From NCBI GenBank assembly GCA_019634925.1, contig JAHCAL010000009.1, forward strand, positions 28 through 64,027: 64,000 bases of DNA. Direction: 5' to 3'. Source of the stretch: Pseudomonadales bacterium. GTDB lineage: Bacteria > Pseudomonadota > Gammaproteobacteria > Pseudomonadales > Azotimanducaceae. The notes beneath the pieces are model-generated. The model saw only the letters and a list, made by a program, of their open reading frames with translations, was not told where the DNA came from and did not search any database. Both the position numbers and the translations under genes were made by a program. Below, piece by piece: positions 61,047 through 61,921 of this stretch (position 1 is the stretch's first letter; each line of letters starts with the position of its first letter).

Positions 61047-61586
61047 TCAGGCGCGGGTCATGGCGCTCAGCCGAATGACCCGCTCGTCGTCGACACCAAG
61101 CATCGCCACCAGCACGCCGATCACGCGGGGCAGGTCGAGCGTACCCGCAGCGCACATCTCCTCGATATCCACCCAATCCTTGCCGCGGTTGAAGAACGCC
61201 TTGAATACGGCCAGGTCGTCGCAGGCCAGGAACGGTACGTTGCGCCCCATGAACTGCTCGAATCGTGCGCGGCCGGCGGCCTCCTCATGAAACGAGGTCG
61301 TGTTGAGGAATATGTCGATGGGTGTGTGCTCCCACCAGAGCCGGACCTGGCCGTCGCGCCGTACGGTCGAAGTGTCCTTGCGCGTTCTGCGCACCTCTGC
61401 TGGCAGGGCCGAAAAAACCGCGTCGTACTCGGCGGCCGCGACGAACACGTTGACGTCGATATCGATGGTGCCGCGCGCGCGGCCGGTGCACCAGGCGAGG
61501 GCGAGCGCGCCCCCGAACGCGTGCGGCAACCGCGCCGCATCGAGGGCTTCGTGGATCAGCACGATCTTTTCGGGGAGAGTGGTCAC
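61047..61586 (-). CDS. minimal nucleotidyltransferase-fold protein (Pol-beta superfamily), candidate TA/Abi toxin partner
   Basis: 179 aa, GTG start. FGGALALAWCTGRARGTIDIDVNVF fits the hG[GS]-x(9-14)-DhDh NTase signature. GTGA overlap with the upstream HTH gene. Confidence 0.75.
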   Translation of the reverse strand: MTTLPEKIVLIHEALDAARLPHAFGGALALAWCTGRARGTIDIDVNVFVAAAEYDAVFSALPAEVRRTRKDTSTVRRDGQVRLWWEHTPIDIFLNTTSFHEEAAGRARFEQFMGRNVPFLACDDLAVFKAFFNRGKDWVDIEEMCAAGTLDLPRVIGVLVAMLGVDDERVIRLSAMTRA

Positions 61587-61921
61587 GAGGGCAGGCGGGG
61601 GTAGTCCATGGTGCGGCTCACCTGGGCCGGGAACTGCTCGGCGAGCAGCAGCACCTGCTCGAGCTCCTCGCCGCGCTCGAGGCCGTCCCGGCGGCGGATG
61701 CGCTTTTCGACGTGGAAATCAATGGCGAAACCGGCGGCCTCCAGGATCCGCACGAATGTCTCCACACCAGGACATTTCCTCCCGCTTTCGTAGGCGAGCA
61801 AAGTCGCGTGTGAAGTGGCCGCTCTGCGCGCCAGTTCGCGCAACGACAGCCCGGATTGCTGCCGGGCCCGGCGCAGGATGGTCGGCGCGCGCGCCAGGGA
61901 GTTGTCGGCGATGGCGTTCAT
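61583..61921 (-). CDS. XRE/Cro-family helix-turn-helix protein, candidate antitoxin/regulator
   Basis: 112 aa. ILRRARQQSGLSLRELARRAATSHATLLAYESGRKCP is a classic HTH_XRE pattern, followed by a ~40-aa charged C-terminal tail. Confidence 0.82.
   Translation of the reverse strand: MNAIADNSLARAPTILRRARQQSGLSLRELARRAATSHATLLAYESGRKCPGVETFVRILEAAGFAIDFHVEKRIRRRDGLERGEELEQVLLLAEQFPAQVSRTMDYPRLPS

Follow-up and report, generated by a model that had tools for sequence, protein, structure and literature searches.

A 64,000-nt stretch of a genome assigned to a Pseudomonadales bacterium of the family Azotimanducaceae (assembly GCA_019634925.1, contig JAHCAL010000009.1, positions 28 to 64,027; hereafter, the window) carries a small cassette at 61047-61948. 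It consists of an operator, a gene for an XRE-family helix-turn-helix (HTH) protein, and a gene for a minimal Pol-beta nucleotidyltransferase (NTase). We consider this cassette probably to be a toxin-antitoxin (TA) module of the MenAT (MenT/AbiEii) kind, in which a MenT1-like toxin would be paired with a new, XRE-type antitoxin that also acts as autorepressor. This confidence applies to the TA reading as a whole; each step of the mechanism proposed below is derived from homology and conservation and is held to be less likely than the whole. By sequence profile, fold and catalytic residues, the NTase is a homologue of the short toxin MenT1. Furthermore, the pairing of the two genes is far beyond chance. 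We took 80 loci from species-representative genomes, using a closer alignment (A6) for the search, and in each of the 76 informative loci, i.e., those with enough upstream DNA, which range from Gammaproteobacteria to Acidimicrobiia, both the palindromic operator and the HTH gene accompany the NTase gene.

The original prediction, made from the sequence alone, described two minus-strand genes that overlap by GTGA, and its coordinates and lengths agree with the open reading frame (ORF) listing and the sequence. The HTH gene (61583-61921, minus strand), the candidate antitoxin and autorepressor, encodes 112 aa from an ATG at 61921 to a TGA stop at 61585-61583. This ATG is the only possible start, because an in-frame stop lies 18 nt upstream. 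The NTase gene (61047-61586, minus strand), the candidate toxin, encodes 179 aa from a GTG at 61586 to a stop at 61049-61047. The HTH stop and the NTase start share the 4 nt at 61583-61586 (minus strand), which suggests translational coupling. A 4-nt overlap of the ATGA/GTGA type was observed in 56 of 79 related loci, and 14 more have other short overlaps. The proposed addiction-module layout is therefore present: the gene for the DNA-binding protein comes first, and the Pol-beta NTase gene follows in translational coupling to it. Judged by its sequence features, the module looks like a type II-like TA operon: the genes are small and coupled, the DNA-binding protein comes first, a palindrome precedes it, the spread is patchy, and the context is variable.

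A family profile was needed to place the NTase, since the single sequence was insufficient. The family comprises 6867 proteins at E ≤ 0.001 among the scored candidates of a 5.8-billion-protein collection, the window NTase matches 1231 representative clusters at 50% identity, and at least 587 species genomes carry a member. Every named member is annotated as "hypothetical protein" in the names given by the source. An alignment of 62 diverse full-length members (A1) served as the basis of the profile, the conservation analysis and the structural model. Compared with the PDB, the A1 profile matched MenT1 (Rv0078A; 8AN4/8AN5/8RR5) with an E-value of 3.2e-10 (profile positions 7-165, chain residues 4-175), and MenT1 was the sole solved protein family that was convincingly matched. 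When A1 was aligned by hhalign to the MenT1 segment from this profile match, a probability of 94% was obtained. Matches to nitrite reductase in the single-sequence PDB search were dismissed as spurious.

The same relationship was seen at the level of fold. The AlphaFold2 (AF2) model of the NTase built with A1 had a predicted local distance difference test score (pLDDT) of 97.6 and a predicted template modelling score (pTM) of 0.91. In a Foldseek search of the PDB with this model, five MenT1 chains came out on top, with E-values down to 1.7e-08 and template modelling (TM) scores of 0.69-0.73. The larger MenT3/TglT (PDB 6J7S, 289 residues) gave a TM score of 0.53, and a viral fold library returned generic NTase folds only, with TM scores of at most 0.54.

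The conserved residues of the family fall into the motifs of this fold. In A1 (n = 62), G25, G26, R38, F93, K129, R134 and D140 are invariant, and T40, D42, D44, D91, D137 and W138 are conserved in at least 90% of the sequences. The predicted Pol-beta signature, FGGALALAWCTGRARGTIDIDV, was found at NTase residues 24-45. Motif I, by alignment the metal- and NTP-binding loop, reads G25-G26 ... R38-x-T40-x-D42-x-D44 (61455-61514, minus strand) and is conserved in A1; the pair G25-G26, the 15 residues that follow, and D42-I-D44 align to GG ... D41xD43 of MenT1. D91 (61314-61316, minus strand), the third acidic residue of motif II, lies in the central strand, where PIDIF aligns to VVDLLF of MenT1. 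Motifs III and IV, K129 ... R134-x-x-D137-W138-x-D140 (61167-61202, minus strand), align to K137 ... D149, D152 of MenT1.

The correspondence between NTase and MenT1 residues was taken from the profile and hhalign alignments, and the roles given here are transferred from MenT1. R38 corresponds to MenT1 R37, which in a model stabilizes the alpha-phosphate of the NTP, and T40 to T39, the site of antitoxin-induced auto-phosphorylation (PMC11375011). D42 and D44 correspond to D41 and D43, which bind Mg2+; K129 to K137, which is essential and binds NTP; D137 to D149, which contacts the ribose 3'-OH in the model; and D140 to D152, which is needed for tRNA modification (PMC11375011). NTase activity of MenT1 requires both K137 and D152 (PMC11375011). 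As the functional residues of MenT1 align with conserved residues of the NTase, the latter retains, by alignment, the complete catalytic and regulatory residue set of MenT1.

The position of the NTase within the wider superfamily was assessed by scanning the A1 members one by one. AbiEii was matched by 42 of the 62 (weakly, with E up to 0.01), DUF6036 by 30, NTP_transf_5 by 12, and DUF2204 by 5. Two relatives reached the AbiEii gathering cut-off of 22.5 bits, namely P0219 (29.9 bits) and P0127 (22.5 bits); the window NTase had no AbiEii (PF08843) match at E up to 1 and did not reach the gathering score. Apart from this Pfam score, the NTase agrees with the MenT/AbiEii (DUF1814) superfamily in all sequence and fold comparisons, and its closest relative is MenT1. 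Two arguments of the original prediction have to be revised in this light. It held that MenT toxins are all about 250-300 aa long, which is true of MenT3 and MenT4, whereas MenT1 has 196 aa; and it saw no match to the described NTase TA families, which the homology to MenT1 contradicts. Its guess of a DUF2204-like protein finds little backing in the counts above, where AbiEii and DUF6036 are far ahead.

The second component of the cassette was described as an XRE-type HTH protein with an extra charged tail. Indeed, it matches the Pfam families HTH_3 (E 1.5e-10), HTH_31 and HTH_19, with E-values from 1.5e-10 to 2e-08, and about 45 residues rich in R and E follow the HTH domain. By profile, the solved proteins nearest to this domain are XRE regulators, among them the antitoxins HipB and HigA. 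Solved structures match the protein only within residues ~7-78, and none matches the tail by sequence; in PADLOC only generic HTH models were hit (RmrA N-terminus, HTH_VI and CapH). The tail is conserved in 34 HTH partners to the same degree as the DNA-reading helix. Its full motif is RIRxRDG(I/L)xRGxELxxxLxLAxxFP, and R83, E86, L87, L91, A94, F97 and P98 are invariant. The C-terminal helix motif R83-G-x-E86-L87-x-x-x-L91-x-L-A94-x-x-F97-P98 (61628-61675, minus strand) is therefore the putative toxin-binding and neutralizing element.

In-frame fusions to the NTase, of the HTH protein or of the tail motif alone, occur in several relatives (P0127, P0174, P0236, P0237, P0196, P0183 and P0190). 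Some of these fusions may be frameshift or assembly artefacts at the 4-nt overlap; even if they partly are, they show that the HTH and NTase parts travel tightly together. The AF2 model of the fusion P0127 had a pLDDT of 92.3. In this model the tail motif (residues 70-89) is helical, with a pLDDT of ~90, and the helix is flanked by low-confidence linkers and lies ahead of the NTase domain.

This partner is unlike every described antitoxin type of MenT/AbiEii toxins. In Pfam and NCBIfam only XRE-type HTH families matched it, AbiEi was absent in PADLOC, and neither the partner nor the neighbouring ORFs had a HEPN domain in a Pfam scan. The earlier statement that there is neither a HEPN nor an AbiEi/COG5340 partner is thus upheld. 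COG4861, the remaining described partner type of MenT toxins, is set apart by the general HTH-family matches and not by a specific test. Our literature search found no description of an XRE-MenT-type pair, and none on DUF6036 either. Within a TA family that is otherwise known, the novelty appears to lie in the antitoxin type (an HTH protein of the XRE class that carries a conserved helix in its C-terminal part) and in the operator.

The partner also bears on a reading in which the roles are reversed or purely enzymatic. HEPN-MNT systems, where MNT stands for minimal nucleotidyltransferase, work by nucleotidylylation of the partner. By analogy, the NTase of the window might nucleotidylylate the HTH protein to tune repression, and no toxin would be involved. 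This would agree with the minimal size of the NTase, as a minimal NTase is the antitoxin in HEPN-MNT systems (PMC3632139). However, the lack of a HEPN domain in partner and neighbours, the homology of the NTase to MenT1 and not to MNT by profile and fold, and a gene order (DNA-binding protein, then enzyme) that matches antitoxin-toxin operons make this reading very improbable.

The DNA upstream of the HTH gene contains a perfect 7-4-7 palindrome, GGTATCC-AATA-GGATACC, which is the predicted operator of the HTH protein. It is 18 bp long (61931-61948) and ends 9 nt before the HTH ATG; the predicted HTH-binding DNA is GGTATCCAATAGGATACC. The palindrome is unique in the window, where 0 are expected by chance, and it is the single strict match in the 3.47-Mb genome. 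When the upstream DNA of 11 loci was compared, the palindrome was the sole alignable block, with the consensus TGGTATCCGATCGGATACCA. Across 411 kb of loci, the palindrome pattern was found 81 times, once per matching locus and nowhere else.

At a distance of 7 nt from the ATG, the right arm of the palindrome gives rise to a -10-like hexamer, TACCAT (61929-61934, minus strand), which is present in 64 of 81 loci. The start codon follows ...ATACC at a distance of 8-9 nt in 43 of 77 loci, and no Shine-Dalgarno sequence is visible before the HTH ATG in the window. This arrangement suggests that a -10 element and the operator overlap and that the mRNA has little or no leader. The promoter is only a putative one, because the -35 element in the window is poor (2 of 6 positions) and a sigma-70 consensus scan of the minus strand gave no promoter call. 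On the plus strand, a near-consensus promoter (TTGACA-18-CATAGT, 62071-62100) points away from the cassette and lies only ~120 nt from its operator. It faces a leader ORF with a long perfect array of heptamers (GCTCACG units, 62142-62248), which is followed by a small ORF without Pfam match and then by an SpvB/Rhs-type gene that leaves the window.

Taking these elements together, the following mechanism can be proposed. A dimer of the HTH protein would bind the 18-bp palindrome, which overlaps TACCAT, and would thereby repress its own operon. The mRNA probably starts at or beside the HTH start codon, and translation of the NTase would depend entirely on re-initiation at the GTGA overlap, which would keep its output below that of the HTH protein. 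The NTase would be held inactive by the invariant helix in the C-terminal tail of the HTH protein, either by sequestration or by an induced auto-phosphorylation of Thr40 in the manner of MenA1. Loss of the labile antitoxin would free the toxin, and the free NTase, like MenT1, would add nucleotides to the 3' ends of tRNA and stop translation. In the most specific version, the tail helix itself would trigger the auto-phosphorylation of Thr40. The cassette would then represent an independent MenT antitoxin architecture that couples autorepression to type VII-like inactivation, in a unit that, operator and recognition helix included, would have moved nearly unchanged between Actinomycetota and Pseudomonadota. 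We regard this version as possible, though doubtful.

Several observations speak against a TA module. In single-sequence scans of Pfam, NCBIfam, PADLOC and PHROGs, the window NTase had no significant match, and its single Pfam match, DUF6036, scored 16.7 bits against a cut-off of 23.6; what counts here is the lack of support from Pfam and NCBIfam. Its identity to MenT1 is only ~20%. Between phyla, NTases of the family are 58-68% identical, which is unusually high for a toxin, and therefore a housekeeping-like role could be possible. Searches of 72,556 plasmids and of 50,697 phage records detected no NTase homologue. In the Foldseek search, the antibiotic NTases ANT(2'')-Ia and LnuA ranked directly behind MenT1 (TM 0.55-0.62), followed by JHP933 and TM1012. 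Finally, XRE/DUF397 pairs were once assumed to be TA modules and reportedly did not behave so (PMC10364602).

Much of this would suit a different reading, in which an XRE repressor controls a benign NTase whose substrate is a small molecule, either an antibiotic, as for ANT(2'')-Ia and LnuA, or another non-essential compound, and the tail serves oligomerization or ligand sensing. The Foldseek ranks of the two antibiotic NTases, the very high conservation between phyla, the absence from the plasmid and phage collections, and the XRE-led pairs just mentioned are in its favor, as are weak Aminoglyc_resit matches in 5 of the 62 A1 members (best E 3.9e-05). The original prediction had left room for a housekeeping or antibiotic NTase family; in the HMM comparison, the window NTase received no significant Pfam or NCBIfam assignment to either. 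With respect to ANT(2'')-Ia and Lnu, there was no match in Pfam or NCBIfam and no sequence match in the PDB, and the likeness is limited to lower-ranked folds. Moreover, the PDB matches of the profile include MenT1 but no antibiotic NTase, and conservation extends to the Thr40 loop as well as to motifs III and IV of the MenT type (K129, R134, D137, D140). The invariant tail, the 4-nt overlap, the repeated fusions of tail and NTase, and the strict co-inheritance of three parts are typical of neutralization by protein-protein contact. Since such traits are unexpected for a simple pair of repressor and target, they count against a small-molecule enzyme, which we therefore consider unlikely.

We return to the proposed TA module and its distribution. 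The cassette family occurs mainly in Acidimicrobiia, uncultured Pseudomonadales and other Gammaproteobacteria, with single cases in Burkholderiales and Myxococcota. In the genus of the window, 9 of 18 genomes have a full-length NTase copy, and genomes from 16 other families of the order had no NTase match. Of the 41 genomes of one acidimicrobial family, 21 carry the cassette, some of them twice. Presence in only about half of this family argues against a cassette that is universal and inherited vertically, within the limits set by the incompleteness of metagenome-assembled genomes (MAGs). Decay was also seen: a congener has an NTase fragment with an internal TGA (G012:C21:27761-27997), and in another genus of the same family the gene is split across two frames (G022:C9:262326-262729). 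In a further genome (G024), a duplicate of the 32 C-terminal residues adjoins an intact NTase copy.

Two NTase copies were found, for example, in G041 (C3:586752-587270 and C1:461111-461626), and likewise in G061 and G047. Compared with the window protein, such acidimicrobial duplicates show 66% and 52% identity. The presence of two diverged copies per genome suggests cassettes that coexist and possibly do not cross-react. A tree of 81 NTases, weakly supported in its deep branches, places the gammaproteobacterial sequences in two clusters that lie within the acidimicrobial diversity, and a Burkholderiales copy pairs with an acidimicrobial sequence. The window NTase is in one of these two clusters and the copy of one congener (G009, locus L087) in the other, and hence there are two cassette lineages in one genus. 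One contig of 8.5 kb (L084, CAMDVY010000108.1), which bears the label of a Klebsiella pneumoniae MAG, has a cassette 59% identical to that of the window; this cassette groups with uncultured marine Gammaproteobacteria in the tree, and the contig is probably mis-binned.

The location of the cassette in the window is in line with gain and loss. It is preceded by a trio of pth, ychF and a membrane protein gene that is kept in six congeners, in which YchF is 83-88% identical. The membrane protein gene after ychF (60205-60951, plus strand) has a sub-threshold match to UPF0259 (19.9 versus 31.4 bits) and is syntenic in these six genomes. Beyond the trio, cassette and Rhs genes are absent in all six congeners, as judged from the 3-7 kb present in five of them and ~0.35 kb in the sixth. 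In six congeners that carry the cassette, its contig is not the one that holds the ychF locus, and DNA similarity to the closest relatives is confined to the coding region 61051-61876. Thus, the cassette sits in an accessory patch, as had been supposed, in the sense that the pair is absent from this locus in the congeners examined; it is found in half of the genus and is not syntenic there, so it is no conserved core pair of the genus. The 11-nt inverted repeats on either side of the cassette (61050-61060 and 61995-62005) were considered as insertion scars and rejected: by estimate, chance alone should yield about two perfect 11-mers of this kind in 1.6 kb at 67% GC, and three were found.

The original prediction also considered abortive infection. 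In such a case the main role of the cassette, still as a TA module, would be phage defence in the manner of AbiE, and infection would free the NTase. AbiEii is homologous and belongs to the same superfamily, the window cassette adjoins an accessory toxin operon of the Rhs/SpvB type, and the fused HTH-NTase forms would also fit. TIR domains are common in immune systems, and in P0125 (344 aa) an N-terminal TIR_2 domain (E 2.3e-28) is fused to a MenT1-like NTase in place of the HTH; this protein could be a defence-type derivative of the family. However, the NTase matched 0 families in PADLOC-DB 2.0. The 145 genes that flank the cassette in the 76 loci, based on heuristic gene calls, belong to 144 Pfam families, none of which occurs more than three times. 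They are ordinary metabolic genes with sporadic single PADLOC matches and no enrichment for defence, phage or plasmid genes; Pfam families of defence or of mobile elements do not recur among them, and the 25 most frequent neighbour families listed include no integrase, transposase or phage family. Together with the lack of phage and plasmid homologues, these results do not bear out the defence proposal, and we regard phage defence as the main role as quite unlikely. No substantial flank is common to the loci by ORF clustering and tblastx, both of which are noisy. The cassette is a stand-alone unit that has been gained, lost and relocated without a visible tie to defence islands or known mobile elements.

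Considering all these results, the cassette is, from its sequence, most likely an untested branch of a known TA family that is widespread in uncultured bacteria. To our knowledge, MenT toxins have been studied almost only in Mycobacterium tuberculosis, with three unrelated antitoxin types. To these the cassette would add, as the fourth type, an XRE repressor whose tail consists of one helix, together with a sharply defined 18-bp operator. Owing to its small size, it is well suited to ask whether antitoxin-induced auto-phosphorylation generally controls MenT-type NTases. Possible gains are a portable repressor-operator pair and a better annotation of thousands of genes in Acidimicrobiia and in marine and soil Pseudomonadales.

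Among the known systems, HEPN-MNT shares with the cassette a minimal Pol-beta NTase in a two-gene module. There, the NTase is the antitoxin beside a HEPN RNase, whereas here a HEPN protein is missing and the NTase is of the MenT1 type. HipB and HigA are the nearest relatives of the partner's HTH domain, and for the latter, too, a dimeric repressor on a palindrome can be predicted. Their toxins, however, are a kinase (HipA) and an RNase (HigB) and not NTases, and the RGxELxxxLxLAxxFP tail has no counterpart in their structures.

AbiE, MenAT3 and MenAT4 (COG5340-DUF1814) have an NTase of the same superfamily with motifs I-IV, as reflected by the AbiEii matches of most A1 members (42/62). Their antitoxins carry a DNA-binding domain and autoregulate via inverted repeats, features for which the cassette has likely counterparts. 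In contrast, their toxins are bi-lobed and ~290 aa long, and their antitoxins are winged-HTH proteins (COG5340) with a C-terminal antitoxicity domain, as opposed to the XRE type found here.

The closest known system is MenAT1 (Rv0078B-Rv0078A, M. tuberculosis; 8AN4, 8AN5, 8RR5). Both toxins are short single-domain NTases (196 aa versus 179 aa), in both systems the antitoxin gene precedes that of the toxin, and both antitoxins presumably act through a helix. The residues at MenT1 positions R37, T39, D41, D43, K137, D149 and D152 are conserved in the NTase; F28 and F38 of MenT1, which were mutated in published work, are not conserved in the window NTase. T40, which aligns with the phosphorylated T39, is conserved in at least 90% of A1 and might be phosphorylated as well. 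MenA1 has 68 aa and lacks a DNA-binding domain (PMC10435456), whereas the partner here is a 112-aa XRE HTH protein with a conserved tail and a conserved operator. Homologues of MenA1 are few (21 genes), in contrast to the NTase family of the cassette with its thousands of members.

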